A stretch of DNA of 57,593 nucleotides, counting the filler, from Dugesia japonica (Eukaryota), in NCBI GenBank assembly GCA_001938525.1. It is 5 parts of 5 records of this genome, joined end to end, with 100 filler letters (N's around TTAATTAATTAA, not from the genome) between each part and the next. Parts side by side here need not be neighbours in the genome. Positions count along the whole stretch, not along the records: positions 31,550 to 41,063 come from MQRL01360255.1; positions 41,164 to 57,593 come from MQRL01557826.1; 3 more parts are not named here. The stretch is one strand, 5' to 3'. This document shows, piece by piece, positions 19,441-51,672 of the stretch. Below the pieces are notes generated by a model. That model was not told where the DNA came from. It saw only the letters and a program-made list of their open reading frames with translations, and did not search any database. The translations under genes were made by a program, and so were the position numbers. The first letter of the stretch is position 1; each line of letters opens with the position of its first letter.

Positions 19441-19689
19441 TCATCTATAGTAATATTGTTGAACATATAATTGTTAGCAATGTTAATGTTCATTTGTTAA
19501 AATCTGTATGGTTGGAGAATTATGAAGATGATCAAGAAGCTCAGATAATAATCAAGAATGGAATGTTTAGTCAATATCGAATGACATAATTTGAATGAGC
19601 AGAATTCAGACAATTTGGAAAGTATGTATTTCAATAAAATAAATGATATAAACCAAATTAATTACATATTTAATATATTTAATTAATTA

Positions 19690-21781: not shown

Positions 21782-21881
21782 NNNNNNNNNNNNNNNNNNN
21801 NNNNNNNNNNNNNNNNNNNNNNNNNTTAATTAATTAANNNNNNNNNNNNNNNNNNNNNNNNNNNNNNNNNNNNNNNNNNNN

Positions 21882-22562: not shown

Positions 22563-23110
22563 TTAATTATTATTTATATTTTTAATGTCACGATTGAAGA
22601 AAGATCAGCTAATAAATTTTCTTTAATTATAGATAGGGCATTCCTTTTATTTGTGAAATTGAATGGATTATTACTGAAAATATTCCTCAAATTTGATTGA
22701 AAAATTTTTTCAATGATTAACTAAAATTATAATTAAATTAGTGCAATTGTAATGTTCGTTTTTCTTTTCAGCTTCAATCAGTTGATTTGTTAAGCCGTTG
22801 AACTTTATGAAATGTTTGTTTTTAATCCTCTAGATCCATAAAATATGCAAACATCATATGTGAACAGCATAAAGTATCTTTTCTTTTGTCCTTCTATTTT
22901 TTATAACTATCAAACATTGTTTTCTATGTTTCTTGTATTGACAAGTTCAGCTCATTCAACCGTTGAAAAATATCTGCAATATAATTTCATGATATACTCT
23001 ATTTATTTGAAGAACGGAACTAGATCACAAATACAGTTATTTCATCTCTTCATTCATATATTCTCTTTGATATTATTCTGCTGTAATCATTTCGCAGTCT
23101 TTCGTGCTTT

Positions 23111-23450
23111 TGTTGGGATCCATAAAAACTAAAATCATAAACATACTGTAAAATATTTAAAATCACAAAATATGCGTACACACAAGACACACCAAATACA
23201 AAAAACAGCCTTAAGCCATAATGGATGGTGGACAATGTGCGATCCAACCGTAACTACAGTATCTCGAAGATCCAACAACTAAGACTATATTTCTCCAAAT
23301 ATTTGATTTTTGTAACTTATTTATTCTCAAATGTGAGCAGAACTGTGCTTTCAGACTATCTTTGTTATTATGTGAATGTTTAACATTTATTTCTATACAT
23401 CCTTATTTGAATGTAAATAATTCCATTATATTAATAATTAATTAATTTTA
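23111..23450 (+). repeat. LTR-like segment (TGTTGG start, AC-rich then T-rich); similar segments near 40541, 40866, 52493 and 56213
   Basis: Shared TGTT(G/T) start and compositional architecture; this copy is followed by a gag remnant. Termini and TSDs not resolved. Confidence 0.35.
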
Positions 23451-23559
23451 ATAATTAATAATTACCATTATATTTGAAAGGTTTTGCCTTGAAGGCATAA
23501 AACATATTGGAAATATCCCTGATAAATAGGATGAATTGGTTTAAAAATTGAAAGAAACG

Positions 23560-24200
23560 ATCGTAATACCTAAGGAACTAGAGAGAATTCACATTCAGAA
23601 ATTTAGAGATAGAATTTAAAGCAAAGATGAAACAGTAGGAGAATATATGTATGAATTAACGGAACTATTTTTAAAGCATTTGGAAATGGTGATCATATTG
23701 AAAGAATATTGGAGAATCAATTTTTAAATGGTGTTTATACATATATAAGATTTACTTTAGCAACTGTGGATTATCAAAACGCGAATGGATTAATGAGTAA
23801 AGCGAGGAGGATAGAACTCAAATACAGAAACTAACGAAGGAGCGTCAAATCAATATTAATATTAAATCAATGATAATGATAAAACTAAAACAATAGTGAG
23901 AGGAACAGATGAATGGAACGATATGAAAAAAGCTTATTCAGATTGTCAAAATAACAGAATAGATAAAAACCCGATTAGATGCGTAAGTCAAAACAATGAA
24001 CCAAATTCCAATTTTAGTAGAAATAATAAAAGAGGATTTATTCCTAGAAGGGGAATAACAATAATAACCGTGATTTGAAACGAAATAATACTTTTAGACA
24101 AATTAATAATAATGGGCAAATCTTATGTTAAAAGTGTGGAAAATACCAACGTATTGCAAGGAAATGTTAGAACCAAAGTTTCAGTCCAAGAGATAATTCA
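23560..24200 (+). pseudogene. Retrotransposon gag remnant
   Basis: FRDRI*SKDETVGEYMYEL..L...AF...QFLNG and a decayed knuckle C*KCGKYQRIARKC. Confidence 0.6.
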
Positions 24201-25919
24201 GAAAATAGTGTTTCATTCAATTCAGGCACAAAAGAAATGAATTCAATAGAAGTTATCACAAATAGTGATTTTGAAGATCTAGAAGCAGAATTACAAGAAA
24301 TAAAAGTAAAATATGATAGATTAAAAGAATGAAAAGAGAAATCAGGAAACAACTATTTCGATATTTTTGAAATAGAAATGAACGATAATACTGAAGCAAC
24401 ATAAACAGTTGCTGATATTAAAGCATATTTCAGACAGCAAAAATTGTTAGTAGAGAATGTGAAAAATGAAATAAATAAATCAACCACAAACGAATTAAGA
24501 TTGGTACAATATTTAAAAGATTTAAATGATTATAGAATGGATTACAGAGAGTTTAGAGCTGTTATAACATTTCTGATTAACTTGATATGGAAGAAAATCA
24601 AACATTAATAAATACAATAATTAAGAAATAAAAAGTAACATTTCTTCAAAATGACAAGAGCTGCCAAGAGCCTTTTCCTGTATAAGTAATGCCGAAACAA
24701 GATTGTAATTTAAAACTTTTTGACGTTCGGTGGAATTGTTGGTAGAGCTTTATTGACTTTCAGCTGCAAACCAGTAAGTGTTACATTAACTGACAACAAA
24801 AAAGGCACAAATGAATTGCCAAACATACACAAAGGAGTGTAAGTCTATTTACTGCCTGTTACAAGATTTTGGAAGATAAACATTTTACAGATAAACCTAA
24901 AGAGATTGGAATAATACTGGATAATACGGTAATACTGGATCTCTTATACAAAGTTAATGACGATATATGAATTACTATGTCAGATAGAAAATCTTCTCAA
25001 AAAGCATTAGTATTAGAAATGGCATCACTGGATATAAAAATGGAATTCCACATTTTTATGATAAGAAAAACAATGGGATTTACTCAAAAGAATACAAAGG
25101 AAAAAACAAAGAAACATGTCTTATTTCTTATCACCAGAGAAAGAATACTATCGATAATGATAAATAAAATTGCAAAAGGTAGCAAGGGGGTGAATTAAAT
25201 TTTGAATAACTCTTAAACAAAGATCATTTCAAACGATCTATACAAGGACTTGTTGAAAAATTCCTTGGAGGGATGCTATGGTTTGGTAATATATTTTCGT
25301 GTATTATTGGGTTTTACTACTTATTCGTTTTAATAAAAATAGTCGGCCATCAGATATTATCGCTAAAACAGCTTCATGCGATTCAAACTTATTTGGAAAC
25401 TAGCTTTATGCTTTTTTCCTTTTATAGCCTAGCATATGATAGTTAAAAACCATAATAGAAGAATTATCAATCTAGATAAACATGATTAAAGAATCATCTG
25501 TTTCTATAAATTGATCAGAAGATAATTTGAACGAAACAGAAAGAAAAACAAAATGATAGTCAATACAAACTAAATTCATGCTAACTACAATCGTCAAATT
25601 ATCAGAAAAATCAAAGTCTATATTAACCGGTAAAACAAGGCTTTGAGCGCATCAATCAAAATACCACACAAACGAATCAAAAGGAACCATTAACAACATA
25701 AATAATAGTTAAAAACACTGAAAACAAAGATTTCGGTAGGTCTTTTATTTCAATCTTCATAAAAAATCAAGTAATAATGGTATTATTTTATGGTATTAAG
25801 GGCACAAGCTTTTATTATTCGCGCAATATTCCTATACAGTATTCTTTGAAATTTTAGCAAATAAACCATATTGTGAAACTAAAGGGAAGATACCACCGCA
25901 AGACGAAATTCTAAAGACA

Positions 25920-26030
25920 GAAGCGTGTTTTGCTGTGGAAAAACTAGTCATAGAAGAATGAATTGCCTATTTAAAGGGAAATACCTAATTTGTGGAAAGG
26001 AAGGTCATAGTTCTCGACATTGTTTATTAA
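25920..26030 (+). pseudogene. Gag zinc-knuckle (CCHC x2) remnant
   Basis: CFCCGKTSHRRMNC...ICGKEGHSSRHC. Confidence 0.6.
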
Positions 26031-26129
26031 TTCGAGTAAAAGATATCCAAATTTGGATTTTTCGTTACAACATTATCTTCATTTTCCATCGCACGAGTGT
26101 TCTATGATTGCATATTAATAGTCCTGAAT

Positions 26130-26480
26130 TATTGTTTAAACTAATACTGTTCTGATTGCATTAATTTGAATTTCTCTTTTAAATACTCCATAGACAAATG
26201 TCGATGCAGTCAAAGCCTTTGCAAACTTTATACTTAATCTCATATTTACTTGTTGTGATAATTGGCTTTGGTGTATATTAAAATCCGCAACAAGCACAAA
26301 TATAAATGGTTTTGAATTCTTCAATTCATATTCCTGTCAATATATACCATATTTGTAACAACATATTGTATATATGCTGTACTATAATTATCGTTTTCCA
26401 GATTTTGAGTATATATTTCTCGATAATCATTGTTTTTTGAAAGGTAAATGAAAGTAGCATTTAAATGAAATGACTACTAT
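26130..26480 (-). pseudogene. Non-LTR (LINE) AP-endonuclease remnant
   Basis: FVLVADFNIH resembles the APE I..GDFN motif. Otherwise degraded. Confidence 0.4.
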
Positions 26481-27039
26481 ATTGAAATCACCTTTATATA
26501 AATTTTCATTTTGAAATGTTACCAGCAGAAAGTTAGGCAAACGACGATCACCAAAGATTTTCTCGATATAAAACAAAGAACTATCTTTACTATTTGCAAA
26601 CTTAACAGTTTCTTTCGAAAAATCTAATTTTGTTTACTTAATTCTCTTTGATGCCGCGAAATACTGAGTGTTCAACACATACACGTCTAACCATTAGTCT
26701 TGATTTCAACAATACATGTTTAGGTTTATCATTCGGAAATTCCAGTCACATTTTATGGTTTTCTCTCTTTAATTGAATATGTGCATTATGACACCCCTCA
26801 AAATACCTTTACAAATTAAAATTTTATAAAAAATAAAATCTTATATTTATATTAAAGTATACTTAAAATTATTAATTTATTTTTAAACTTAACTTTAACA
26901 AAAAAATTGTTTAAAATCAATTAAATTGACAAATTGTAAGCAATTCCACGAAGATAATGAATATGATCTGTATTTTCGTATATTGAAATGAGAATACAAA
27001 GACATCAATGTAGATGCATGTATTTGTTTTAGATGCTCC

Positions 27040-28939: not shown

Positions 28940-30382
28940 TTAATATTCTTCATCAATAGTTGTATCTTGAAATTGTTGATATTCACTAATCAAATCATTT
29001 AAATTTGATTCAGCCTCAGTAAATTCCATCTCATCCATGCCTTCTCCAGTATACCAATGTAAAAATGCTTTTCTTCTATACATAGCAGCGTATTGCTCAG
29101 CAATTCTTTTAAAGATCTCTTGTATCGCGGTGTTGTTACCAATAAAAGTTACTGCCATTTTCATTCCTCTTGGAGGAATATCGCATACTGCTGTTTTAAC
29201 ATTGCTTGGTATCCATTCAACAAAATATGCGCTATTTTTGTTTTGTACATTTAACATTTCTTCGTCGACCTCCTTTACTGACAATCTTCCTCTAAACATT
29301 GCAGCAACAGTAAGATATTTACCATGTCTTGGATCGCATGCTGCCATAAGATTCTTACAGTCAAACATTTGTTGAGTAAGATCATGGACTGAATACGTTC
29401 TATATGGTTGAGAATGACGACTTGTTAAAGGCGCAAATCCAGGTACGAAAAAATGTAATCGAGGAAAAGGAATGAGATTTGTTCCTAATTTTCTCAAGTC
29501 TGCATTCAGTTGCCCTGGAAATCTTAAACATGTAGTAACACCCGACATTGTTGCACTAACTAAATGATTTAAATCCCCATAAGTTGGATTACTCAGTTTC
29601 AATGTTCTAAAACAAATATCATAAAGAGCTTCATTATCAATTGTAAAAGTTTCATCTGCCATTTCAACCAGTTGATGTATGGCTAATGTGGCATTATAAG
29701 GCTCAACTACAACATCCGATACCTATTGACATTAAATCAATTTAAAAATTAATTATTATAATTTATACTTTTGGAGATGGATATGTCGAAAAAGTACACA
29801 CAATCCTATCAGGAAATTCTTCTCGAATTTTGCTTAATAAGAGCGTTCCCATTCCTGAACCAGTGCCACCTCCAAGTGAATGTACAACTTGAAATCCTTG
29901 TAGGCATTCACAAGCTTCAGATTCTTTTCTAACTAATTCAAGAACAGAATCAATTAATTCAGCTCCATCTGTATAATGTCCTTTGGCCCAATTGTTACCA
30001 GCTCCAGTGTGTCCATATGCAAAGTTATCCGGGCGAAACAAACTTCCATAAGGTCCACATTTAACTGAATCCATTGTGCTTGGTTCTAAATCTGTTAAGA
30101 TTGTTCTTGGTACCAAGCGACCACCTTATTTAAAATTTGTGATTATAATATTAAACTGTAACAGGAGTACCAGTTGCTTCATTATAATACACATTGATTC
30201 TTTCTAATTGTAGATCACTGTCTCCTTTATAAAATCCATCAACACTTAAACCATGCTCATCTGAAATTACTTCCCAAAACTAAACTTTAAATATAATTCA
30301 AATTTTTCAATTTCACAAAATAAACCTTAGCCCCCATTTGATTCCCACATTGGCCGACTTGAATGTATACAATTTCACGCAT
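28940..30382 (-). CDS. TUBB: Beta-tubulin, divergent isotype, 434 aa; exons 30382-30326, 30279-30171, 30124-29769, 29722-28940
   Basis: [59 protein letters not shown]. Three GT-AG introns give a continuous 1305-nt frame. Confidence 0.98.
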
Positions 30383-31214
30383 ATTTGTAAAAATTTGGAT
30401 ACTTTGTGGTTGCTAAGATTATAATTTTACAAATTGATAATTTTAAACTTTTGAAATTAAAATCGATCCATGAATATTATTTCAAAATATTTATAGAAAA
30501 TTAATTTTCTATGTGAAGTAATTAACAGTAGTTTTAAATGAAACTTCGTTTTTAGTAAAATTCGCTATAATAACAGTAAAATATCAATAATTGATATTCA
30601 ACTGTAAATTAAAACGTAAATTAAACTGGTAAATCTAAATAGTTCAAGAAATCACTAATTTATATATATACACACAACTGAATAAATGTGTTTTCAGTTA
30701 ATTAATTTTTTAAAATTTATATTAATACTAAAGCCAATACACAAATTTTAAAGATAGAAACCTACAGAACTTGGAAAGAGAAGAAAGATAGCAGCACATC
30801 GAATCACCCGCCCCCCGACGAAGTGTTTTACAAATTAAAGCATTTTGATTGCGTAAAAATCAATTCTATATTTGGAGCGAGTTTGGAAATTTTTCTACGC
30901 CGAAAGAAAATGGTCTTCTTAATAAAGTAAACTTTTCTTAACGTGGTTTTATATCTTGGAAGCATTTGTTGGGGTCCCACGTGAGTCGGATGATAATAGT
31001 GGTGGCTGGGGAAAAAACAGCCCTCAGGGGAACCCTTTCAAGAATTTAACCTAACGCCCCTAGGTTAGGTATTCAGTTTATGGTGGTTGACCCCTCGCTT
31101 AATGGGAGGTGCACGCCCACAAACCTTTGTAGTCGGGTTCATTACTTTCCCTATTATTAATAAGTTATTTAAAAGAATATGATGTTAACCATGCCCATTT
31201 TATTTTATAAAACA

Positions 31215-31449
31215 ATTACAACAAATCCAAAGCTCCTGGATCTAACCATTGATTTGGATCCGTTACCGTAAAATTAAAGGTGTCGTTGTCGTCCCATTGG
31301 ACTCAAGTTGGATTGCCAATCTGGCGGGAAAGGTCAGCTATGTATTGCTTTAGGAAATCTATTTTCCTTTGCAATAGTTGTTTAGTTTCAGTTTCCAGGG
31401 CCTTGGTTTGGGCTGCTAAATCACTCTGTTTCTTTACTATGTTATCAAG
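31215..31449 (-). pseudogene. 3' end of a coiled-coil ORF of the same style as the 31.5-40.4 kb array
   Basis: LDNIVKKQSDLAAQTKALETETKQLLQRKIDFLKQYIADLSRQ...; one internal stop, followed by AATAAA. Cut by the linker. Confidence 0.4.
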
Positions 31450-31549
31450 NNNNNNNNNNNNNNNNNNNNNNNNNNNNNNNNNNNNNNNNNNNNTTAATTA
31501 ATTAANNNNNNNNNNNNNNNNNNNNNNNNNNNNNNNNNNNNNNNNNNNN

Positions 31550-33543
31550 TTAGAAGATGCCACCGCATTCTACACCGTCTCCTTCTAGAAAGACACCTGA
31601 AACGTAAAGCTGACAGAGCGATAATTATTTATTTAACGCCACGTTACAGTATAGTCTTGCTAATTACTCAAGAAAAATTATCAACAGTCGGGTAAAGAAA
31701 CTACGAGGAAAGAATGGTATGAAAATCAGGAAAATAAAATCAAACCATGAGTGTTGGGTACATCGATTCAATTAAAGCATCGTCAAGAATATTCATGATG
31801 ACCACTAGTAAACGCGCTAAGATTTATCTTAGAAAATCAGCAAACAACTGAGATTAAAAACACGGAAATTGCAGAAAGGAGAATCATGGGCGCCAGAAGT
31901 GAAGAAATCGCCAATTAATCAACTATGGCAAGGTAATGGATCATTCTTGGAAATAAAGAGAATGAAACAAAATTATCAATCACTACAAGCTCTCTATCTA
32001 AAAAGAACTTTAACAGAAGAGTGTGTAAAAGAGAAAGACGCAAAATTATCGGAAACAAATGTGACGGACGAATTAAAGAAGGGAAATCTAAAGTAAAACA
32101 ATTTGAAATATGGACGATTCAATATGAAAGGACTAATCTCACAAAATGAATGGAGACCGTTATGTCAATCGTGTCTAATAGGTGTTCAAAGGGTTACGAC
32201 AAATAATCAGAAGTATTGGGCCTTCAATAATCAAGTGACATCACAAAATAGGGCGAGGCGGAGTCAATGCCACGTGAAAAATGCAAAGAATGGGAGCTCA
32301 CCAGATGTCCAGTCACCAAAGACAATATCATGAATTTATGCGATAAATGTTATCGGAGTATGGAGAGAGAGACATGAAACGATCACTAATACAAGTTGAA
32401 AGTAGAAGACAATGGTTAATCAAAACTGGCGTATGGGAACGTTCGAATTGTATTAGTTGTGTCAATGCAAAGGTGAACATAGAGTTGTCAGTGTTAGAAG
32501 CGGTGTTTAAAGATTTATGTTTGGAGTGTGGAATCGATATTCATGGTCAATTAAAGGATGCGGTAAATGTGCTGTATGAAGCAAAAAAATGGATAAAGTT
32601 AATACAAGCCATGAATGTTAAAGGAGAATTCGTGTCACCAACAGAACAAAAGAGACGATGGAAGGAGACCAAGCGTTGGATGCAAGGAATCGACGAGGAC
32701 GTCGATTCTATGAAAGGGGGGAGTGATTTGAACGAACTACTAATCGAAGCAAGCTTTATGAGAATATATCAACAACTATCTAATAAAAAGCAACTAATCA
32801 AAGAGATGTAAGACGGTAATAGAGTTTTCGGCGATTTATCAAAACGAAACGTACAAGTAACAGTATCAGATGAGACTAAGCAAAGTCTGAAAGCTATGTG
32901 GGAAGACCACATAGTGTCAGGAGGAACATGAACCGGAAACGAATGATACAGAATACAAAGCAAAGTCAGCCAAAAAGATGGCGGAAGTGGTACAATTTAT
33001 AAAAGAAAACGATGGGTAAGGGGACCCTGACGTGGAACAATTGAAAAGGTTGGTACGGCTAGCGCCAACACAAGAACAAGTTTTGGAAAAGTTGGAGAAA
33101 ATAAAACAAGCAGGAAGCACTACGACAGATGAATCTGAGAAAACGACAATAAGAATTGAAACAGCGAGGGTAACGTCAAATGTGCTAAATAAACCACAAG
33201 AGGATTTTATTGATCAATTGATGCGAAAGTTGGTAAGGACCGGTTCACGAAGGAAATTTCTTGCACAAGTCAGGTTGAAGCATGAGGTGACAACAAAGCA
33301 GAGCAAAAAGGAAAATGAAGGGAATTGGTCAGCAGGACTCAGTGGTGGAGTAGTGGGCGTCATTACGATAATCATGATGATGAAATGAGGACAGTATCCG
33401 AGACTGCGATTAGAACCGGAATTAAGAGAATTGACAGCGAAATATTTGCATCTGCCAAGAGAGTTGGTGCGATCGGGAGTTCCAAAGGGAGGAACTGAGT
33501 CGTTGTGGAGTTATTAAAGGGAATAGTGGGAGTGAAGTTCTAA
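31550..33543 (+). pseudogene. Long degraded ORF, possibly the C-terminal half of a non-LTR-type RT protein (thumb, Cys-rich region) with a long extension
   Basis: Coding-like, co-oriented fragments joined by frameshifts and stops: VLGTSI....W..LVNALRFIL (compare RT YLG..I...W..L), KYGRFNMKGL (compare K.GGL.L..L), and CISC...C..C. The catalytic core is not seen because it is cut by the linker. Confidence 0.4.
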
Positions 33544-33713
33544 ATAAGTTACCTGAAATGTAACAGTAAGGTACAAAATTTAGTTTTTGAGTAGCTCGAA
33601 ATGTAAAGTAGGGAATAGTTGATTAAATTGAAATTAAAGTATCGAGTAGTTGGATAAATTTGATTTTGATATGGATCACTATAGCGTTTATCATAGTATT
33701 TATTTAGTAAAGA

Positions 33714-34229
33714 ATGGAACATAAACAGATGACAATGAATGGACAACTAACAGTAAATGTGGATCTAGACGACGTCGACAGAACAATTATGGAAGAACCG
33801 GCACAAAATTATATCCAGATGCTTAATCAACCTTTAAATCCTTATTTTACAATGGAGAACTTGTGTGACGAACCCTGCAGAAGCGTAATGAGTAATTCAG
33901 ATGTACTAAATGAACAATTACAACAAACCCGGCAATTAAATGCAACCCTTGTGGAGAACCAAAATTTTAATGTGATTCAGATACACCGATTGATTAAAAT
34001 AGAGGAGAAACAGAGACGACAGATTACCGAGAATCAGAATTTTTACCTACAAACCTTGAGTGGAACTAACAAAATAGTAGAGGATCTGAGACATCAAGTG
34101 GGAGAGCTACAAGCCTATAATGCAGAGCTTATTTTATCCCAAATTAATCGACTACCGAGCGTATCCGCCATCCTGAACACTATCGAGACGAGTGAGAGGG
34201 TGTGGTACGGAGAAGAGAGTAATCTATGA
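33714..34229 (+). CDS. Hypothetical coiled-coil protein (171 aa), cargo of a putative giant element
   Basis: Intact intronless ORF with Q/N/L heptad-like composition; AATAAA downstream near 34309. Confidence 0.6.
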   Translation: MEHKQMTMNGQLTVNVDLDDVDRTIMEEPAQNYIQMLNQPLNPYFTMENLCDEPCRSVMSNSDVLNEQLQQTRQLNATLVENQNFNVIQIHRLIKIEEKQRRQITENQNFYLQTLSGTNKIVEDLRHQVGELQAYNAELILSQINRLPSVSAILNTIETSERVWYGEESNL

Positions 34230-34420
34230 CAATGGATGCCAAGATGTAGAGTACTGTAAATTATGTGTTAAATAGTAACTGCATTAATATGCAAAAAAAT
34301 TTTTAAAAAATAAAACTTGTATTATAAAAATCAAAAACAGTAAAAGTATAATAAAAGTAGATCGACAATTATATTTAGTTAATCAATGCGTAATTAGAAA
34401 AATTCCAATTTGTATAAAGA

Positions 34421-34926
34421 ATGTCTGAAGATTTTCAAAGATTGTGGAGAAGACGATAATGATGGAGAAGTCAAGTTTAGATCAGAAATCAATCACAGAA
34501 TTACAACAAATTAATTAGAGGATCAAGCATGATAATGTATCATTTCGAGGAAATATTTGGTTATCAAAATGCTATCTTGAGAATAGTGGGAGTACTGACG
34601 ATGCAAAAAGTAAATAAAGATAATAAATAGCGGAATGCATGTTATTGGAATATCAGCGAGCGATGGTGGGAAATGTTCAATTTTTCAATGAGGTTCAGAA
34701 GTCAGTCGACAAGATGAAAGAGTTTGAGGACACGGTGTCATTAATATGCAAAACAAAAATGGAAAAGATGATGAGGTGCGGAGAATGTGAGGTTGAAGCA
34801 GTCTCGGTATTAAATTTACCTTGTGGAAATGTAGCAGTTTGTCAGAAGTGTCATCAGAGAAACGAGTTCAAACGATGTATAGTGCGTAAATGACCCATTG
34901 AGGAGTGGCATGTGGTGTACCTATGA
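34421..34926 (+). pseudogene. Coiled-coil plus C-terminal RING (IAP/MDM2-like) E3 ligase, decayed
   Basis: 34777-34926 reads CGEC-x7-NLPCGN-VAVCQKC-x8-CIVRK*PIEEWHVVYL*. H>N, C>R and the stop are each single-base changes from a terminal RING-HC. Confidence 0.75.
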
Positions 34927-35106
34927 GTGTGACACCCAGTAAATTGTAAATAAACTTAAACTACAAAATACAATACAGTAAAAGTAACAAAGGAAACCAC
35001 ACTAACAATTTGTAAATATCAGATTCAATTAAAATTTGGTTAAGCAGTAAATTTTATAATCAGTACTCCCAATGTCTTAATGTGTAAATATTTAATATTA
35101 TGGTTT

Positions 35107-35758
35107 ACGTGGATTTCCATTAAGAAAATGGCATTCCGAAGTTCAAGTAGTAGGTCTCGACAGGGAGGAGCAATCAAACGATACTGCGAAAATAGTGATC
35201 AAACCTATTCAATGAATGAATCTATAAAGACTTGTGAGGTCAAGGAGAAAAGGAGTACAAAGGCGCCTAGAGACGAGATAGAGCCATCTGAGCTGAGAAA
35301 CGTTGAATTGAAAAATCCATCAACGGAAATGGAATCACGAGTAATGCGATGTAATGTACGAATTCAAAGAGAGAGTGAGCCAATAAATGATATGGTTAGA
35401 ACTTTTTGTAAAAACTTGCGCTGAAAGAGAGGAGGTGATACTAAAACTGCAACGAGAGCTAAATGACGTCCTTTAGCGACCAACAAAGCAAATCAAAGAA
35501 TTAGAAACCGAAATTAAATGGCAACAGAAGAAAATCAAAATGCTAGAGAAAACTATTGAACGTAATAATGAAGCTCGTATTACAAATCAACAAGCGCAAC
35601 AAGAGACAATGAATCAGATGCAAGAAGATAATGAGCGACTGTTGAGAGAAAGCTTAGTATGGAAATTGGAGAAAGAACAGAACACGATAGACATTCAAAA
35701 TCTAGAAAACACATTGAAACATCTTCATGATGAAAATGCGAGGAAGTCCCAATCCTAG
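35107..35758 (+). pseudogene. Coiled-coil protein, frameshifted
   Basis: ORFs 35080-35424 and 35540-35758 are linked through EVILKLQRELNDVL*..QIKELETEIKWQQKKIKMLEK. Confidence 0.55.
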
Positions 35759-37550
35759 CAGTGATTCCCCCTCAACAAGTCAATTTGACGAAGGTAGAAC
35801 AAACAATTTACACTTACAAAACCAATGGGCAACCAAATTAGTCAAGTCGACCAAAGAGCGAATCAGAGAAGGAAGGATCAAGTGAAATCTTCCCGCCAAT
35901 CCACCAATACAAGTCAATCCAACCAATGGCCATATTCAGCATCTGAAGAAGATTTATTCTGGGGTCTCTAACCCAGTAGTTTCGGGCAGTTCTATGCTGT
36001 GTATAAACTATGTAAATATCATTCGAACTTATGTGTGAAAACTATTTATCTTTGTGTCTATGGCAATTATTATCACCAGATATTCTGACAGTTCTATGAT
36101 GTCCATTTTGTCGTTTCATGTGTATTCTATGCTGCTAATCAATCCCGAATCAATCCAGCTATCTTCGAGCCGAAGGTGTCCTCCAACCCAAATCTGTCGT
36201 CGAAAAGAAGATCCAGCTAAGTAAACTTTATGATTGTATAGTGATCCTATGGTGAGATGATTTTGATATTATTATTGATTGAAGTGATCAGGTTCTTTAT
36301 AATGACAATTATGATTTAAACATTTAATATAAATTGATCTAGTGGTATAATTGAATTGGAGTGCAAATCTGCATGTGTATTCAATATATGATATGTTTAT
36401 ATTTGATTGAAATATTGTAGTTTCAATTTTATTATTTTTTCTTCTTATTTCTATCTGTGTTTGTTTTATGACCTATCAGAGTCTTGCTTGAGGGAACTTT
36501 CTGACTAGAGTATGAATGATAATCGAGCTCTCATAGACCCAGTTTTCGTTAAAGGAGTGTTATAGAACTGAGAAAATTGGCAGCCAAGGTTAACAAAGGA
36601 ATTTAATGAGAAATTTCGGGGTGGAATTTTTTCGAGGCCCCCAGTATTTTGTTGGGCTAGAAATCAATGGAATTGATAAATAATCAAAATGAGATTTCCT
36701 GAAAAGAATAACGGCGAAATAAGAAAATAAATGATGAACGTGAACTGAACCAGAAAATGTGGTCAAGAAAATTATTATTATTATAATTATTATGGCGTAT
36801 TTGAAAATACCGAAAAATGAAAATCAGGCGTAGAAGACCCAATTTCGGTGGTACAAAAATGAAAAATATATGTACCGAAAGGCAAAGATTAGTAGAATAA
36901 CAAAAATAAAATACAATACTATAATAATTTATTAACAAAAGATCTCTACGATCTGTTTTATTTATTATAATAATGGATATTATCCATTTAATATTAATTA
37001 ATTTGGTACAGTCATCATTCCTTGTCTAGCTGATGAAAAATAAAACGAAAATCATCATTAGACCAGCTGAATCATTTCCTGCTAGACAAGGTCTTTCCCT
37101 CAGTAACAATCTGAGGTCACACAAGGTGACTGATGTCGAAGAAGTCAGTTCCGAGTTGGTGTGCGAGAAAATGTCGGTCGGATAGAAAATGACGAGCAGC
37201 CTCGATTTTAAAATTGGTGCTGTCCAGTCAGAGGAAACGAATCGCAAAAACCAGATCCTGATTGGCAAACTAATGAATCGTTTCAAGTTGGGGTGTAAAC
37301 GAGGAATAAAACTCGTTTGCAGTGGAAAATCAGTAAGAAGTTAAAATCAAATTTTAATTCTTTTGCAATTATTCATACCACATTTTATTTAAACCAATTT
37401 CTACAGTTATACCTTTAGTCAACCATTATTGGAAACGGCAAATTTATCAAAAGTAATTAAATTTTATTCTTACCATTATTCACTGTTATAAAATCATCTT
37501 TTATATGTAAACGACGAGTGCCCTGATTCGAGGTTGTGTTCCCGGAAAGT

Positions 37551-37725
37551 TCAGAATATAATTATGAAAATTCGTGAATAGCAAATATCAATCGGCTAAT
37601 CCATATGAGAATTGAGAAAAAAGAAACAGAATGATCATCAGAATATAATTATGAAAATTTGTGAAAGGCAACTATCTATCGGATAATCAATATGAGATCT
37701 GCTAAAAAGAAACAGAATGTCCATC
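37551..37725. repeat. Diverged tandem duplication, 87-bp unit
   Basis: TCAGAATATAATTATGAAAATT...AAAGAAACAGAATG begins at 37551 and again at 37638. Confidence 0.85.
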
Positions 37726-38378
37726 CAGAGTTATGGGGAGATTAGAATAATCCGGAACTGAATAAAGACAGTGGTGGTGAAATGTTATAGTTATCGGAAA
37801 TCGAGTGTCGAGTAAAACGGTATAGTCGTGTGGGAGCTCGGTGACTAAATAAAGTGTATAAAAAATTTGTTCGTTGTTCTATCTCGTCTAATTTTTTCCT
37901 TTTTAAGTTTTTTTTAATTCGTTGTTCCACGTTATTAATATAATTTTTATTACCTGTCGTTATTTAATTTTTTCTCATAAGGTGTAAATTACCAAATATT
38001 GTTGATTACTTTTATGTCCATTAATTTTTCTTAAATTATTGAACATCGTTATAATTGAGAGTTTCTAAATTGTCATCTAATCATTAATAGTTAAAGACGC
38101 ATATTTTTTGTTTATAACTTAATAGTCGGATCATTAGTTCGTTCTCCTAACATGAACAATTTAAGTGCAGTTGATTGATAATAGGGACATCTTCTGAGAA
38201 TTCCAGAAGATGGTGAACGAGAAAAGATGGTGGTATCCAGCTGACATCTTCCATGGTTCAATCTCTAGGAATGGGGACGAAAAAAACGTTGCATTAATAA
38301 AGATTTAATTTGTTTCGTAAGCTTTGAATTTCATCTATTGTTGTTATTAAAATTTTGATAAATTTATTTAACAGAATC

Positions 38379-38717
38379 ATGATCGAGTACTATCAACCGC
38401 ACATTCCGCTAGTCCTAACAAATGACGGAGACGAGGGAACCTTCTGGGTTCCGTGGAGGAACACATTGGAGCTACTAAATGAGCAACGTACCGAATATGA
38501 GACAGAAAAAACTGAATTGCTTCATAAAGGTGGACAGTTGGTGGTGAAGTTTCAGTGTGCAAAGCAACAGTTGGTCGCTACCCAGAGAAAGCTACAATTA
38601 TGCCAGCAGGACAATGAGTGGCTCAGACAAGGAATAGAGGTCATCAAGGGGAGTGCTGCCCGATTGGTAACGCAACAAGTGACGAGTCGGATGCAGTTGG
38701 ACCAACTCGAGGATTAG
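38379..38717 (+). CDS. Hypothetical coiled-coil protein (112 aa)
   Basis: Intact ORF MIEYYQP...LELLNEQRTEYETEK...QQLVATQRKLQLCQQDNEWLRQ. A TTTAACAG acceptor lies just upstream and AATAAA near 38792. Confidence 0.55.
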   Translation: MIEYYQPHIPLVLTNDGDEGTFWVPWRNTLELLNEQRTEYETEKTELLHKGGQLVVKFQCAKQQLVATQRKLQLCQQDNEWLRQGIEVIKGSAARLVTQQVTSRMQLDQLED

Positions 38718-39109
38718 ATCCTGTGTCGCAGGGTCGGAAAGTTATCAAGATCCAATTATTTTAAAAGTTGATTCGCTGGCTGGAACTAATGAATAAATGA
38801 TTGTATATATTGGAATTGTGTTTGGTTATTTTGCTTATGAGAAATTAGATTCTGGTGATATGTATGTCACAATGTGGTCAAAACCTTTTCTTTTATGTCT
38901 GCAGAGGCAATCTTAGGTTTAAATGTGTTGGTTTGATCATTGTTTTCATTCTGTGTAACAGTACAAATATGGAACAAAAATTTAGTCCAGTAGTTATTAA
39001 ATCATATTAGTTCTTGGATAGCCAATTAAATTCCTATTAGTTGTTTCATTTAATTAATTATGTTCACAGTTTTGTTAAATATTATTGTAATTTATTTTCA
39101 TCTAAAATT

Positions 39110-39358
39110 TTAGTGAACAAATCAAATGATGCAAAAGTGTCGAGGGGATGGAACCACCGCGCAGCAAAGATGAAAAGAGAAACGAAAAGAGTAGAGAAAT
39201 GAAATTCTGAGGCCATATATAACCAGATTAAAGAAAAGGAGTTGTCCGTTCAGTACGCGAATAGGTTAATAGCAGACATCATCAAAACATATGCCGACCG
39301 GGAGAGTTCGATGTTTGTTTCGTTAAGAACACTATGGCTGAATTACCGTGTGCCATAG
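39110..39358 (+). pseudogene. Coiled-coil gene remnant with ADIIKTYADR motif (homolog at 45.5-45.8 kb)
   Basis: QIKEKELSVQYANRLIADIIKTYADRESSMF. Confidence 0.6.
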
Positions 39359-40114
39359 CCATCAAACGAAGCCATAGAGCAGACCATCGATTGGGACGCC
39401 GATTAATGGATGTTAAATATGAATCAATAAATATTAGTGGCTGTGGATGTGGTGTTTTGGTTTTCTTGGGATTTTATTTGTTGAAGGGGAATTATCACAA
39501 TAAATTTTTACTGAGCATAAAGAGGATTGTTGCTGTCTGGGTTCAGGTATTCAGTAGATAAGACGCGATACCGCAAAATCGCGCTGAACCTGTGGGAAAG
39601 AGGGGCACGTCACAGAGGAGATGCTACAAGCCATAATCAGTAGTTAATGAAAAATACTTCACTAGCGATGGCAAAGGAGTCATAATTATTCCATGAATTA
39701 AATTACGGTAAAGATGTCAATGGCACACTTTCATAAGCGTAGTGGTAATTCTGGCATGCTTAATTTTTCTAACTACCTCTACCACTGGCAATTTAACGTT
39801 GAAAGCAAGGATTAAGGGATGTTGTAATTTCTGGGGATATTACTGGCAGTGACAGAGTTATTATTATATTTATAGCAAAATGGTTGACGTGTTTATCGAC
39901 ATTACGCCTAACTGTAAATAACACTAATGGTAACAGTAAGACGAACCCAGGTTTAAATATGATAAAATTAATCAACAGCTATGATTCGCTATCCAATTCC
40001 TAACACTCATTGTTTGAGTAGCGGTTTAAAATTGTCTCTCGTGATTAAATCAGCGGGTTGCTATTGACTTTATCTCCATCACTTACTAATTATCGATTCA
40101 GTAATATTTATCAT

Positions 40115-40371
40115 ATGAATTTAGATTCATTTGAACAGCTAGTGGCGAGTATTATTGATGAATTTACTGCTCAGTCACAAAACCAAACACAAGTACCCCC
40201 TGAGCTGACCAACTTTATATCTATGATTTTATGTCAGTGTAGACTATTTCCGCTTTATATCGATGGATTATTCAGAGCAACTGTAAGTAAAAATCACTGA
40301 GTGGTTTTACTGGGTCCTAGTGATGAAAACGGGTTGGTAGTCGTCAGCAAGTGGGATCGGCATGATCACTA
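40115..40371 (+). pseudogene. Hypothetical protein, last ORF of the array (one internal stop)
   Basis: MNLDSFEQLVASIIDEF...; AATAAA near 40425. Confidence 0.35.
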
Positions 40372-43199
40372 AGTGCAAATGGATTGGGAACAACTAGAAA
40401 TTAATAGTGTTTTCTGGAATGATAAATAAACAATTTGTGCATTGTAGACTGTTGTGATAATGTTTTTTTATTTAATTTGTGTGTAAGTATTATATGTATA
40501 TACATACATCCATGTATTACATAGATATAATTTCTATAATTGTTGGGGAAACACAAACACCAACTACTAATTAAAACATCAACAAAAAACACAATACAAG
40601 CACAAACAAACCACAACAATCAGAACAAAATCCAGCTAAAGATCAACGCAACCATTCAACATCCAGAAAACCGGCAACTTCTGAATTATTTGAACTTTGT
40701 TGAATTCGTTATCAAACTTTTGTGATTTGAATTTTTGTGAAATTAACTTTAACTATTCGGACTTTTGTGATCGATTTTGACAATTTGTAGATATCATCAA
40801 TAATTATTTATTTTTAAATTTTTCGATGTACTAAATAATTATTGATTTTAAAATTTTCGATATACTGTTGAAGTCTGAATACATCCAACACATAGCAAAG
40901 TACATACATAACATAGCATGCAGGGAAAAACATAACATAACAACAACTTCAAATCAATATCTACAACAAGTTCGAATCAACACCTGAACTTAAATCATTT
41001 AGAGATTATTAAAATAATTAATGAAGCACTTACTAAACTCCAATTAACACTTAGTTAACTTTANNNNNNNNNNNNNNNNNNNNNNNNNNNNNNNNNNNNN
41101 NNNNNNNTTAATTAATTAANNNNNNNNNNNNNNNNNNNNNNNNNNNNNNNNNNNNNNNNNNNNGATGCAATTACATCACAGATTAAGATATCAAATTACC
41201 GATAATCGCACTAATTACGTAAAGGGGGCGGGGGGGTCACTGAATGTGTGCTGGCTATGACTGCTACTATCTATCTACTGTATTTAAATGTTTGTAATAG
41301 TTTAAATTTAAGTTCCTCAATGTTGTTATCAATTTCAATAATAGGAGAATTATAAGTTGGTATCGTGCGTCTGAATGNNNNNNNNNNNNNNNNNNNNNNN
41401 NNNNNNNNNNNNNNNNNNNNNNNNNNNNNNNNNNNNNNNNNNNNNNNNNNNNNNNNNNNNNNNNNNNNNNNNNNNNNNNNNNNNNNNNNNNNNNNNNNNN
41501 NNNNNNNNNNNNNNNNNNNNNNNNNNNNNNNNNNNNNNNNNNNNNNNNNNNNNNNNNNNNNNNNTTCAGTAATGAGTAGTAATACTACCATCAACCACAA
41601 AATTAATATAATTAAAGGTGAAAGAATTCAAGATGAGAATACAGATGAATCATCGTAAATAATGCGAAATTATTTTTGTAGATGAGAAGGTGGTTAAAAC
41701 ACATTATGAAAAGTTTGAATAATTAAATTTAGATGAAATAATTAATTGGAATATAAAATATTTTACACATGAGATATATAGAGGTTACAAACAGTTTTGA
41801 GAGTTATTTTAAAATTTTAAAGGATTCGTTCCCAAACTCTCTGTTAATAGCAAAAATTAAAAAGTTGATGTACGATCAATGGAATTTAGATGTGGCTTAG
41901 TAATTTGAAATCATTCTTGAATTTTATTTGGTGAAACATTTTTTTGAAGGTTATTTGTAAAAGTTAACTTTGAGTGTTTTCAAATATTCTTTGTCGATGT
42001 AATTATTTTTAAAGATTTTTGTAAAAATCAATTTGCATGTAAGCGTTTTATTGTAGGACGTAATTTTCAGATTTTGAGAAGACATGTTTGAAAACTATTT
42101 GTGTTGAGAAATAAAGTTTATTCAGTTTGATCTGATTCAATTCAATCTTAGTAATTATTATTTATTTGGATTATTGAACTCAGTCAGATATTTAATTGTG
42201 TCCAACTTGAATAGATCTCAAGTGTCGTGACAACTTTAATTTTATGTTTAATTGATGTTTTAATTTTATGCATTATAAAAATTGATAAAAATGAATTAAC
42301 TGTTAAAAAAAAATATTTTAATTTCATATAAAACTTTTTAAAAATAAAATTAGTTTAATAATGTAATATGTAAATTCTTATTTAGAAAATAAAAAAATTA
42401 TTAATTTTCATTGAATAAAAGTTATAAAGTAAAAATCATAAAAAATATAATATATAAAAAATTTAAACGACAATAAAATAAATATTACCAATAATATCTA
42501 AAAATCATTAAAAAAATCCATATATGTTTAGAATTGATTTAATTCAAGGATTTATAATATTAAAAAATACAAAAAACATTAGCAATTTTTCTATAAAAAT
42601 TAATGAACACCATTTCATAAAATATTTATTTACTGCAAGTAATTTCGACGGAATAAAATCGTCACCAGGCAATTATTGATTATTAAAACAAACTATTTAT
42701 AAATTTTAAATGATTATATACTTTCATTTATGAAATCTTAAGAAATAATCAATAAAATAATTTTAAGAGCGATGTTGAATCTATCAACTGAACACTAATT
42801 TTTAAAATTTAATGCACTTATCGACAAAGCTTCACATATCCCTCTCTCACAATAATTGATTAATTGAATTAAATAAATATTTTATGAAATGGCGTTCATT
42901 TATTTTTATATATAATATTTTAATCAATATTCTCCTCGTTTAATAATAAATAATCAATAATTGGACTATAATCACATTAATTTAGTTACTGGTTATTTAT
43001 AATCATAAGAGTTAAATTGATTAAATATTTATTATGAATAATGAGCTTAATTGAAAAATATTCAATTATTTCGTTTTTTTAAAAACTTACTTCCACTAAA
43101 ATCACGCTTCACCAACGCCATAATAAGAATTGATTCACTTTTTATGAGATAACATTCTTTACATTTAATTATTCTTTTATAATCCTCATTTGACAATTT

Positions 43200-44910
43200 T
43201 TATCTTTTAAAACTACTTCTTTGTTTTCAATGTTTTCTGAATCTTAATTGCACTTTCTACAAAAAACATTTTTTCATATATGTCACTGGGAAATGGTTTT
43301 CATATATAACTGAGTAATTAATAATTCACCAGGTTTCCTTTAGATTAAGGTGTCCAGAAAATGAATCTAAAAGTCGATTGACGTCTCTAAAGTGAATTTG
43401 ATGTTATCATTAATACTATTGGCTCGTTCTACAATATTTTCTAAAGGAGAGTTAGTAACCAAGAAAATATCTTTTAGAATAAAAGCTTCGATCAAAATTT
43501 TTGTTTTTTTTAATGATACTTGATAACAATTCGATATCGAATTGCTATCAAATATCAATAAAAAACAAAAATTTTGATTGAAGTTTTTATTTAAATGAAT
43601 TCTGTAAAACAATCAATGGTTATGTCCAACAATTATTCTCGCAATAATTGCAATTGTAAAAGAAAATATCGTCTATATATATATGAATCATAGATGTATC
43701 TTCTTCTCAGCTTTGAGAACAATTTTATTTTCAATGAAGTTCATTAAAATTATCGCTAAAATGGGAGACAAATTGTTACCCATTGATAGATAACTTTTTT
43801 GTTTTAAAAGTTGTTCATCCATAAAATGCTGTCAGAGAATAGACAAAAACTGATAAGAGATTTGAAATCACTTTTAGTGATTTCAGGAATATCTGTACGT
43901 GTTTATCTTTCAAAGAAATCACTTGCAATATCGATAACATTTTCCGGTCCTTCAAAGGGAATTGATCCATAAAGATTTGCTACATCTAATGAACCAAATC
44001 GATCATCGTTGTTCCAGTCATAATTCTTAATTCGTTCAACAAACTCATAACTATTTTTAAAATGTGCTGGAAGAAAGCTTAACNNNNNNNNNNNNNNNNN
44101 NNNNNNNNNNNNNNNNNNNNNNNNNNNNNNNNNNNNNNNNNNNNNNNNNNNNNNNNNNNNNNNNNNNNNNNNNNNNNNNGATGAAACTGGTTCATGACAT
44201 TTAACTGCTGAAAATAAAGATTTTATTCGGTCTTCATATTTCTCTGCAATTTTAATTAAATCTTTATTAAATTTACTCTCTTCAGTAATTGGCAGTCTTT
44301 TATGGATGATAATCTCATAATTATTCAGATGTTGAGAGAAGAAATCCTTGTATGTCTGTTCAGGCAAAGCTATCAATTTATTTGTTTTGTCTGTTGGACT
44401 GATGATGATTGATTTCAAATTCTTTATTTCTTTAATAATTTTGTTTTCAATATTTTTAAATTTAATATTCTTATTATATTTGTAAGTTTCCTGAGTAAAT
44501 CTATATTGTTATCAATTTCTGTACTAAGATAATTGTACGTTGGTATTACCCTTCTGAATGATTGTTTATACTTCGACTTTTATGAAAAAATTGACGAATT
44601 ATCTGGTGTTTCAAATGTTGTATTTTCTAGTCGGTGTAATTGGTATTTGAGACTGTAAATGGAATCTTCAATCATTGCAATCTTCAATCATTGCAATCAT
44701 TGCAAATTGGAAGAGTCAGAGTCTCCTGAATTAACGGGGATATAGCTTGGTCTTTTATTTAACAATTCAATTTGTCTGTCAGTAAATGTATATGTTGTTA
44801 AATTTTGGAAAGGAAGAACAGTTATATTGTTTGTAACATCTGAGTGAAAATTTATTTTCATTTTGATTTTCTCTTCTGTTTTCGTTTTCTCAGCAAGTAG
44901 AGTTTTCAAT
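43200..44910 (-). mobile_element. Penelope-like element RT, degraded
   Basis: IIISPTDKTNKL, FKNSYEFVERI, FGSLDVANLYGSIP, MGNNLSPILA, YIDD|IF (split by an insertion), NSINDNIKFTLE. Confidence 0.88.
43472..43659 (+). mobile_element. Fold-back short retroelement inserted into the PLE RT active-site motif
   Basis: Perfect 11-bp TSD AAGAAAATATC at 43461-43471 and 43660-43670. The palindrome is centred on CAATTCGATATCGAATTG, and the family tail is present. Confidence 0.85.
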
Positions 44911-46014: not shown

Positions 46015-46253
46015 CATTAACTACTCTCGATTTCTAGAAAATGGCGGCTTTTAGAGTAAACAATAATAAAATTTATTTAAAAATCCAGTAAAAAATTTAT
46101 TTCTTTATTATAAAAATGGCGGTTATTAGAGTTTGGCGGATAAAAGAGTTCGTGGATAAAAGAGTTCGTGGATAAGAGAGTTGGCGGATAAGAGAGTTGG
46201 CGAATAAGAGAGTTGGTGGATAAGAGAGATGGCGAATAAGAGAGTAGTTACTG
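46015..46253. mobile_element. pogo/Tigger-type MITE with expanded 16-bp subterminal tandem array
   Basis: TIRs CATTAACTACTCTC and (rc) CAGTAACTACTCTC, TA on the left. About 7 copies of GAGTTGGCGGATAAGA at ~46129-46245. Confidence 0.75.
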
Positions 46254-46312: not shown

Positions 46313-49300
46313 TTAAGATTTTTCATATAATAAAATATATGGGCAAATATTACATTTGAAATCAAAGAAGGACACTTGATCATCATTTATTAAATACCAA
46401 TTATTCTTCCGTTTCCTGTAAGTCACATAATGACCTCCGGAAATATTTCCCATGTGATGGATAATTGCTGTCAATTTATAGTGAACATTCACAACTTCTC
46501 TTAAAACCAAAATATTAATTAAATATTTAAATAATATTAAATAATATTTTAATGAAGAAATTCATTAATTTCCTAAAATTTACATTTTAGAATTCTCATT
46601 ATTATAACATTTCGCACCAAATCGGAGATCTTCCTCATATTGAATATGATATTCCGGTTTGATCATTTCTTCTTTCTCACTGCTCCACTTATTAGCTTGT
46701 ATATGTAAAAGCAATAAATTTGGTGGCTGCCCCAAAAACAGTATATTCGATGATTTTTTAGGATCATCATCAATTATTGTCGGAGCAAAATGTTGATATA
46801 TTAGATAATTTAATGTAACTCCAGGAGATTCTTGAAATTTGTAAATTAATCCGANACAATTACAGAAATCTATCACTTTTGTATTCTCCAGATAAACCGA
46901 TTGATAAACCAAGATGAAACTGTGATTTACTGGGGATATTAATTCCAGAAAATGTATGCATCATTTCCATTATCAAAGGCATCGAATTCTAAATAAATTT
47001 CATCAAAAATAACTTAACACGCAATTTAATTAAATATTTATTCAATACAACAAGTTTCGACAGTATATATATCTGTCATCTTCAGGCAAAAATAAAAATA
47101 TAAATTTAACATGGGACTCTCTCTCTCTCTCTCTTCTTCTTATTCGAAGTCACGTACAAATATTTAAACTTTTATGTCTTCGCTAAAGAAATGAATTGTA
47201 GAAAAATTAAATTACGAAACGAATAATTAAATTGTTCTGAACTTGAATAATAATTTAAATGTTAAAAAGGTTATTAAAGATCTGGATAAATCTAATATTA
47301 TCGATAAAATATGTTGTGTTGTAAATATGTCTTACTCCGAGGGCTTTAAATATTTACAAAACGATTTGCTAAAATATTCAGTAAATCTCTCAAAATTTTA
47401 AACTGTCTCTCTCTGACTTTTAAAATAATAAATGTATTCAGCAAGAAGTCTAACACTCATTATGGATTGATTTATAATCTTATTTATAAATCTGAGTGTA
47501 AGGGGTGTATTGCTACATACATAGGAGAGACGTCTCATCTGTAAAAGGATTCAGGAACATATCGCAATCAAAGTGTAGAACATAATAGTCCGTGCTAATT
47601 AATTGAATCTCCAGAATCAATACAAATTCGACAAATCACAACCTTTAATCATAGTAAAATATTCCTAAATCTTTGGTATCTGATTTTAAAATTTTGGAAA
47701 GTCGTAAGTATAGTATCATTTTTGTATTGATAATTTGTTTTTGATTTGCAGTGCGTGTATTTAAGATGTTTATTGCTTGGTTTTTTAAAATTTATTTAAA
47801 TTAAAAATTTAATTGTTTTCTTTTGAAATACCCTGTAAAAGGTATGTATATTTTTTATAGTTATTTAATTTTCAAAATTTTTATTTAGAACAAACTTCGC
47901 TTTTTAGAAATAAAAATAACTTCAAAGAAAAAATTCTAGAGTATTCAGCAATCCAGGGCAGGATTAATATGAAATTAAAAAAAATTAATTTCCTTTAAAT
48001 TCTCAAGAAGTGTACCATGTTATCTCTTGTATTGTTATTAGCATGATTTTCAATATTTTTTAAAACATTAGCTTTCAATTTTTAAATTTGAAAGATTTTT
48101 AGATTTAGAGTAAACTGAATGGAGTGAATTATTTAAGTATTAATTATTATCCATTATATTAAAATTGTGATTTTATTATAAAGTTAACTTTTTAATTTTC
48201 AGAAATTTTGTTTATTTAAAAATCCGTTTATGCAGTTATGTTAACATTTGCATTTTGAATTTACTATTATTAATACAGTTGGAAATCACTTGTAATAATT
48301 TTTATTGTAATCAAATAATTAACTTATATTAGCAAAATTTGATTTTTATTGTGATCAACATGGAATGTTAAACATTGTAGTTCTAAATTTTCGATTTAAT
48401 GAATTTGTGTATCGCTAATTTAGATATCGCTAACATACTCACAAAATAAAAACTATTTATTGCTAACAGACGGGGCTCATCCTAATGAGTAGACTATACA
48501 TTGAATTGTGACAAAGCACTGTATTTGGGCGCCTTTTACTTTCGATTTAAATAATTAAATATTTTCGATTTCTCCATGCATACGGTATTTTAAAACACTT
48601 TTTTACCAAAACAATATTTTTGGTTAAACATTTGTGGAAATTTTTTAAACTTACATATTGAAAAAGGTTAAACCCATTTTTTAGTAAAAAAGTATTCAAA
48701 TTCAAAAAAAATTCAAAGCCATCTTTAAGTTGTAAATGTATTAAACTTTTTAGACATATTAAGTTAAATATTTTCCATCTCTTTAAAAGATGATTTGAAT
48801 AAAAATATATTAAAAGAAATTTCAATTTTGGTTTAAAAAAATGGAATTTTAAAAATCCAGGAGCAGAAAATTGAACTATAAATTCAAAAGTTGCAGGGTC
48901 AGTTAAATAAATATTTGTAAAAAGTAAGAAAACACAACTTGAAACAGAAAAAAACAAGAAAATGAAGTAAGCACTTTGAATAAAGAAAATAATGGTGAAC
49001 AACGGCCTTTCGTGTTAACACTGTCAGTTACTAATTCCATCCAAAAAATCCAGCCTTCAAATCAACATTAATTACTTCAGAGCGAAATATTAAGCCTCAG
49101 AGCCTTCAATATCAGTTTCTACAATTGATGTAACCAATTTCAACTCAAATGATCCTGTAAATTGGCGTGATCTAATTAATAGTAAATTTCGCAAAATCAT
49201 CGTTGAATAAGGATCTCAACAAATTAAACGAAATAAATAGTGGTTTAAGTTATCATTATTATCAGCAAAAACTACCAAACCGTAATATCATGTCAAGATC

Positions 49301-51540: not shown

Positions 51541-51672
51541 AGCTGCAATAAAACAGATATAATTAATAATGTGATTGTAAAATACTAAAAAAGAAAATAT
51601 ATTCTCACAATAGGATCACTGATAAAATGATCTCTATCATTTTTGTAGTAATAATACTAATGTTTTATTATA

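Follow-up and report, generated by a model that had tools for sequence, protein, structure and literature searches.

Giant planarian retroelements are already known, and their accessory genes are barely described in the literature examined here. In the sections of a review that we consulted (PMC6431247), Burro is presented as an element of more than 30 kb, found in thousands of copies, with accessory open reading frames (ORFs), tandem repeats, an internal region of up to 25 kb and a Gag-PR-RT-RH-IN polyprotein of about 5,000 aa; RING, Smc, MATH, BIR, BCL2 and ankyrin are listed among its motifs, and decayed Burro fragments with stops and frameshifts are reported in Dugesia japonica. Here, we analyze an array of seven co-oriented ORFs or ORF remnants (A to G, plus strand) in a stretch of 57,593 nucleotides from the D. 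japonica genome (GenBank assembly GCA_001938525.1), hereafter the window. The array occupies a block (31550-40430) of a single 9.5 kb contig (31550-41063), the ends of which are assembly edges and not element termini. This copy is a broken, truncated and decayed piece of a giant high-copy repeat whose cargo, unusually, comprises several genes. We propose with moderate confidence that the block is the decayed accessory-gene region of a giant gypsy-type, Burro-like long terminal repeat (LTR) retroelement, with gag-pol and LTRs expected beyond the contig.

The block resembles Burro/GYPSM1 in its very high repetition (a summed depth, not a count), in its accessory ORFs and tandem repeats, in its putative RING, coiled-coil (Smc in Burro) and apoptosis-related domains, and in its decay through stops and frameshifts. 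It differs in that the contig, with its missing ends, gave no polyprotein, LTR, MATH, BIR, BCL2, ankyrin or env match, and in a cargo made up of six or seven small genes that have polyadenylation (polyA) signals of their own, which is undescribed for Burro in the sections consulted. The Terminons of bdelloid rotifers are also giant retroelements with several accessory ORFs, some of them coiled-coil (consulted sections of PMC6431247), whereas no Athena reverse transcriptase (RT), hammerhead ribozyme, telomeric repeats, GDSL, DEDDy or Rep was found in this contig, ends missing. According to the part of PMC5408684 consulted, LTR elements typically express their extra ORFs as units that are spliced separately, and bdelloid LTR retrotransposons with ORF3 and plant Ogre share with the block the presence of such extra coiled-coil ORFs; in contrast, they carry one or two of them compared with six or seven in the block. 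Word searches of the open-access literature retrieved no account of planarian elements with arrays of accessory genes that are each polyadenylated on their own, and published Burro ORF maps (Grohme et al. 2018 or the review) may already show this array.

The block is a high-copy repeat with a conserved gene order

A search for sequencing data containing the block listed 11 sources in five studies and two organisms, with no RNA source among those listed; eight of the 24 runs listed were aligned to the block. Contigs falling on it numbered 5,699 in run X1, 4,837 in X2, 4,826 in X5 and 752 in X11, most of them being less than 95% alike. In X1 the summed depth, which is not a copy number, amounted to 15,000-27,000 at 33140-34411, 23,000 at 36956-37273 and 19,000 at 39500-39817, and to approximately 5 at 39818-40453; the three high-depth segments showed about 3,400-12,500 times the depth of the latter region in X1, X2 and X5. 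The block is thus a high-copy repeat, not host genes. Single-copy host genes, the case that the preliminary description of the locus had itself set against its interpretation, are excluded for A to F by the thousands of diverged contigs in three runs and the 752 in the fourth. At 80% likeness, however, the region of G (39818-40453) acts like single-copy sequence, which makes it uncertain whether G is a member of the array.

Diverged contigs cross the A-B spacer into B (33567-34047) and also run from the end of B through the next spacer into C (34117-34445). In addition, a joint between B and C (34043>34401) was present in three runs, and another between A and the RING region (33269>34748) in one. 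The order A-B-C is therefore a family trait. No bridge from C to D was found among the pieces listed, and the link of A-D to E-G in other copies appears to depend on joints 36794>38349 (three runs) and 36478>38363, with only 22-23 letters on one side.

Coding content of the array

As initially noticed, the block is richer in GC (0.355) than the remainder of the window (0.265), and GC at third codon positions (GC3) ranges from 0.33 to 0.55 in its ORFs, compared with 0.21 in the neighbouring tubulin gene. The plus strand contains nine stop-free frames of at least 85 aa versus 0.9 ± 0.9 (maximum 4) in 300 local shuffles, while the four present on the minus strand compare with 4.5 expected by chance. 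Plus-strand ORFs or remnants do exist at all seven places named in the preliminary description, whose boundaries required some correction: 31550 is the edge of a spacer, D starts with an ATG at 35128, and an ATG is missing from the left edge of F (39110).

Three-base periodicity reached significance in B, E, the second part of D and the final part of A that was tested; it was marginal in the middle of A, in F and in G, and absent from every spacer tested. The AT-rich spacers described between ORFs were recovered at A-B, B-C, C-D and E-F (GC 0.18-0.27), but the interval at 36.0-38.3 kb is a 2.4 kb gap without a convincing coding frame and not a short spacer. Uninterrupted frames are limited to B (171 aa) and the main frame of E (112 aa), whereas A, C, D, F and G are interrupted by stops; C and D also shift frame, and A does so several times. 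Coiled coils, expected for most products, could be assigned to only three of the seven, being clear in D (heptad z 3.0) and in E (z 2.3), by a crude score over 12 block pieces, and likely in B.

ORFs A to D

ORF A (31550-33543, plus strand) is a 5'-open remnant in which stops are numerous and the frame changes several times. It contains CxxC pairs at 32163, 32339, 32449 and 32518 that may be zinc-finger-like, and a weak EF-hand-like stretch near 33000-33150 (E 0.015-0.016) without Pfam support. The single-sequence structure model of its middle part was uninformative, with a predicted local distance difference test (pLDDT) of 40. The presence of an RT-like ORF, as proposed initially, was not borne out: no match to RT, RNase H or integrase was obtained with Pfam in six frames (X at stops) or in single pieces, in PDB sequences, or with HMMER among 1.84 billion representatives, using the one frame in which the RT-looking stretch lies. 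These searches might nonetheless miss an RT that has decayed. The stretch itself (32150-32374), appealing by eye as RT, gave no match, and an alternative frame across it has fewer stops; this reading was rejected.

ORF B (33714-34229, plus strand), open over its 171 codons, has an AG 3 nt upstream of the ATG and AATAAA at 34309 and 34350. Structure prediction, one of the checks suggested at the outset, modelled it as one 91-residue helix with high pLDDT, likely a coiled coil; a search of BFVD viral folds with this model returned no match at E 0.001. ORF B stays open and bears apparent signs of protein-level selection among its relatives, since 10 of 14 listed differences fall at third codon positions (P 0.004; drawn from 40 listed differences of about 660, with 40 listed of about 705 in a second set).

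ORF C (34421-34926, plus strand) is a remnant with stops and frame changes, followed by AATAAA at 34949. The RING noted in the array resides here: ORF C appears to end in an IAP-type RING that is real but weak, matching Pfam zf-C3HC4_3 with E 0.00023, below the cut-off, and the cIAP1/2 RING with E 0.003-0.014. Although the end of ORF C aligns with the RING of cIAP (BIRC2/BIRC3, E 0.003), it differs from these proteins in lacking a BIR, in its total length of about 170 aa, and in having residues other than Cys/His at some zinc-ligand positions in this copy. ORF D (35128-35971, plus strand) is a broken remnant with a coiled coil near 35490-35570.

ORFs E to G and signals of RNA processing

ORF E (38379-38797, plus strand) is open for 112 aa, up to 38717, and encodes a coiled coil, whereas ORFs F (39110-39431, plus strand) and G (40115-40430, plus strand) are remnants with three in-frame stops and two stops, respectively. 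Each of them ends in AATAAA (38792, 39426 and 40425) plus a GU-rich tract. The best PDB match of G reached E 0.11. A paralogue of F was detected on the next contig (45506-45916, plus strand); it is AT-richer, shows 47% identity over 36 aa, has a strong coiled coil, two stops and AATAAA near 45867, and stands without any other array ORF beside it. Just 3' of this paralogue, there is a 16-nt tandem repeat array at 46117-46244.

The statement that AATAAA follows several stops was substantiated, as this motif was found after five of the seven ORF ends, being missing after A and D and present after B, C, E, F and G, versus a background of 0.27-0.33 per 122-nt window. When the 22 plus-strand AATAAA of the block were ranked by downstream TG/GT, the top three corresponded to the ends of E, F and G (chance 1 in 1540, with a score picked after looking), while the polyA signals of B and C have no GU-rich tract. 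Judging from these motifs, the ends of E, F and G are convincing polyA sites. A weaker signal, with starts chosen afterwards, is the AG located at most 8 nt before the ATG in four of five ORFs (background 0.34).

Upstream of E, the region 37857-38287 (plus strand), with a TATA-like box at 37857 and several contig joints, is a candidate for both an internal promoter and the 5' leader exon(s) of E and F. It is followed by a candidate 87-nt GT-AG intron (38288-38374, plus strand), the end of which lies 4 nt ahead of E's ATG. Joint 38286>38376 skips 38287-38375, within 1-2 nt of GT 38288 and AG 38374; joint 38281>38855 starts in that donor region and lands 7 nt after an AG that itself follows the polyA signal of E; and joint 37948>38169 skips 37949-38168, near a GT and an AG. 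Each of these was seen in one contig of run X8, a run of contigs whose RNA origin is a guess, and we take them as a hint of splicing, not proof. ORF E may therefore have a spliced 5' exon, which qualifies the view of the ORFs as intronless. The raw RNA reads come from diverged relatives, and many fit only partly. Splice-like joints were seen in X8, and neither polyA nor a pile-up of starts in the raw reads. Trans-splicing of a spliced leader (SL) is known in planarians (consulted part of PMC10899757); no leader-like loose end was seen at the start codons among the rows listed.

Non-coding segments

Two segments of very high depth lie outside the ORFs. The first (36956-37330, plus strand), likely non-coding, is a candidate RNA cis-element on the basis of contig depth and folding: the plus strand of 37000-37330 folds better than all 100 shuffles (z -3.08; minus strand z -1.24), and a 150-nt fold scan gave three successive negative windows there, with two windows elsewhere equally low. 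For the second (39500-39817), non-coding, fold prediction revealed nothing special, and the RNA reads aligned there share a core (39558-39595) with varied flanks. At 37551-37719, where depth in other copies is low, an 87-nt unit occurs twice in tandem, and the two repeats are 85% alike. Rfam produced a single chance match on the block (E 2) and no hammerhead, and no tRNA was found in it.

Searches for relatives of the array proteins

None of the seven array proteins was found by exact look-up in the protein collection. Word-seeded searches gave no homologue of B (lengths 94-300), of the RING piece, or of the middle of A (lengths 341-2000, too short a range for a 5,000-aa polyprotein). HMMER returned no match among the 1.84 billion representatives with one frame of 31937-35536 as query, which comprises parts of A, C and D and excludes B, the RING, and the middle and tail of A. 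Viral contigs contained no relative of B, the middle of A or E, and metagenome contigs none of B or of A at 33020-33385. PHROGs provided just two matches, with E 0.03-0.08. The array proteins would thus be orphans in the sense of "not found", as such searches need close matches and may miss the repeats of this organism. Pfam and profile scans of the contig gave no match to gag, env, capsid, polymerase B or ATPase; Pfam gave none to GIY-YIG, GDSL, DEDDy or Rep, nor to MATH, BIR, BCL2 or ankyrin.

Nature of the element and alternative explanations

The claim that the block is the accessory region of a giant retroelement or virus holds as regards a giant mobile element, supported by the repetition and the A-B-C order, while the element class is unproven. 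If the element is Burro-like, it would spread by means of its own RT and integrase, with the cargo carried along. In working copies, each cargo gene would give rise to its own subgenomic mRNA, with a leader spliced to the AG just before the start codon and an end at its own AATAAA. Separately spliced and polyadenylated mRNAs are partly supported for E and F, where one donor (38288) would serve alternative acceptors, and are inferred for the other genes. Because many internal polyA sites would truncate a genomic RNA of the same sense, full-length RNA might be antisense to the array or produced by regulated read-through. The encoded proteins, which would include coiled coils, zinc fingers and a RING ligase of IAP type, could act on host ubiquitin/apoptosis pathways or in particle assembly.

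Several observations weigh against a Burro-like retroelement. Nothing in the contig matched RT, RNase H, integrase, gag or env, and the check for terminal repeats and gag-pol proposed at the outset was negative within its 9.5 kb, ends missing: neither an LTR pair or long direct repeat nor a terminal inverted repeat (TIR) or long inverted repeat was found. The likeness to Burro is one to its published description, and the RING, BIR and Smc motifs of Burro are, in the sections of PMC6431247 consulted, mostly within one 4,873-aa polyprotein and not in small separate genes. Third-position bias was detected in one of nine pieces tested, the other eight having 2-7 sites each and no bias. Coverage is far from even, ranging in X1 from about 20 to 27,000, and G behaves as unique. 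As for RNA processing, splicing is supported by one contig per joint, four or five of the nine listed joints fit GT-AG poorly, and genomic deletions may be the source of the splice-like joints. Raw RNA reads are few (552, 96 and 82 aligned, one of them at least 99% alike), and show no polyA and no pile-up of read starts or ends on the block.

One rather unlikely alternative is that the array belongs to an undescribed giant mobile element or endogenous virus, present in thousands of copies and unrelated to Burro, whose orphan cargo, including an IAP-type ubiquitin ligase, would be expressed like an adenovirus late unit, with shared leader exons, alternative acceptors and own polyA sites. Comparably improbable is a different giant element or an endogenous DNA virus (Polinton-like or undescribed) with ordinary RNA polymerase II genes, each with its own polyA site. 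Separate polyA signals and the TATA-like box are more easily reconciled with an element that replicates as DNA than with one genomic RNA, the array proteins are orphans, and IAP-type RING genes are common viral cargo. However, thousand-fold repetition is more typical of retroelements, and of the hallmarks of Polintons and endogenous DNA viruses (polymerase B, integrase, capsid, packaging ATPase and TIRs), the contig gave no match to polymerase B, integrase, capsid or ATPase; nor did B, the middle of A or E have a relative in viral contigs, or B a BFVD fold match.

We regard as quite unlikely that the block is a composite of at least two unrelated or nested repeats, namely a left unit (A-D plus 36.3-37.3 kb), a right unit (promoter, E and F), G as unique sequence, and one more repeat beyond 40.5 kb. 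Depth does drop at 37592-37909 (20-40) and again at 39818-40453 (about 5), many contigs diverge from the window at 37321 (30, 20 and 23 contigs), and the paralogue of F occurs without other ORFs. Nevertheless, strand and design are common to all ORFs, and the joints 36794>38349 and 36478>38363, short on one side as they are, tie left to right.

We consider it very unlikely that the array belongs to a giant retroelement of Penelope type that resembles Terminons and carries co-oriented coiled-coil ORFs. The coiled-coil accessory ORFs of Terminons (consulted sections of PMC6431247) and a match to the hammerhead-core pattern at 37030-37050 would speak for it, but Rfam detected no hammerhead, the predicted fold places that motif in a plain hairpin, and the contig has no telomeric repeats and no RT, GIY-YIG, GDSL, DEDDy or Rep match. 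Finally, a cluster of host genes or pseudogenes, to which the single-copy G and the host-like polyA and splice signals might point, is scarcely credible given the very high repetition, which largely refutes it for A-F, the GC3 well apart from that of the neighbouring tubulin, and the failure to find host-type homologues.

Neighbouring features of the window

The contig is flanked by a non-biological scaffold spacer at its left edge (31450-31549), composed of N44, a 12-nt stop linker and N44, and by a second one at its right edge (41064-41163). Four such artificial 100-nt spacers, with stops in all frames, join the contigs of the window (8845, 21782, 31450 and 41064), so no linkage can be inferred across them and adjacency may be unreal. 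To the left lies the divergent beta-tubulin gene (28940-30260, minus strand), with two 46-nt introns and animal tubulins as top-ranked matches. Between this gene and the spacer, 30750-31449 is GC-richer (0.37-0.40) and has no Pfam match in three plus frames. At the right end of the contig, 40541-41063 is moderately repeated (depth 100-360 in X1), begins with TGTTGG and is CA-rich, in a style like that of 52520-52760; it is LTR-like by eye only.

Remnants of other mobile elements were also observed. Hammerhead-core matches with a plausible short stem II occur at 8567-8588, 47055-47085, 50234-50254 and 50916-50936, all on the minus strand; three of the four are inside a dispersed repeat family with inverted arms, likely Penelope-type terminal repeats. 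An open frame at 43903-44508 (minus strand), of which the part scanned had no Pfam match, shows by eye an RT-like motif that we take to be probably Penelope-like. A decayed gypsy-like pol end at 53000-54130 (plus strand), integrase-like by eye and with a Tf2-type SH3 at E 0.0086, has the same purine and GC bias as the block, with no similarity to it found. The window further includes a mariner transposase at 1500-2219 (minus strand; Pfam E 4e-11), a hAT-like transposase remnant recognized by eye at 15914-17399 (plus strand; no Pfam match), a zinc-finger exon at 6479-6976 (minus strand), presumably resembling a KDM3-type gene, and a ubiquitin hydrolase exon at 51208-51615 (minus strand; Pfam UCH).

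Implications

Since this copy is dead and truncated, the value of the locus itself is limited. If the array is part of a giant planarian retroelement, one retroelement would carry six or seven separately processed genes, and this would raise the puzzle of how full-length genomic RNA survives despite so many internal polyA sites. If, on the contrary, the array is not Burro, it would represent a large uncharacterised share of the repeats of this genome. Action of element proteins on host ubiquitin/apoptosis pathways is proposed, without experiments, in the sections of the review consulted (PMC6431247), and ORF B and the RING gene would be concrete candidates for proteins of this kind.

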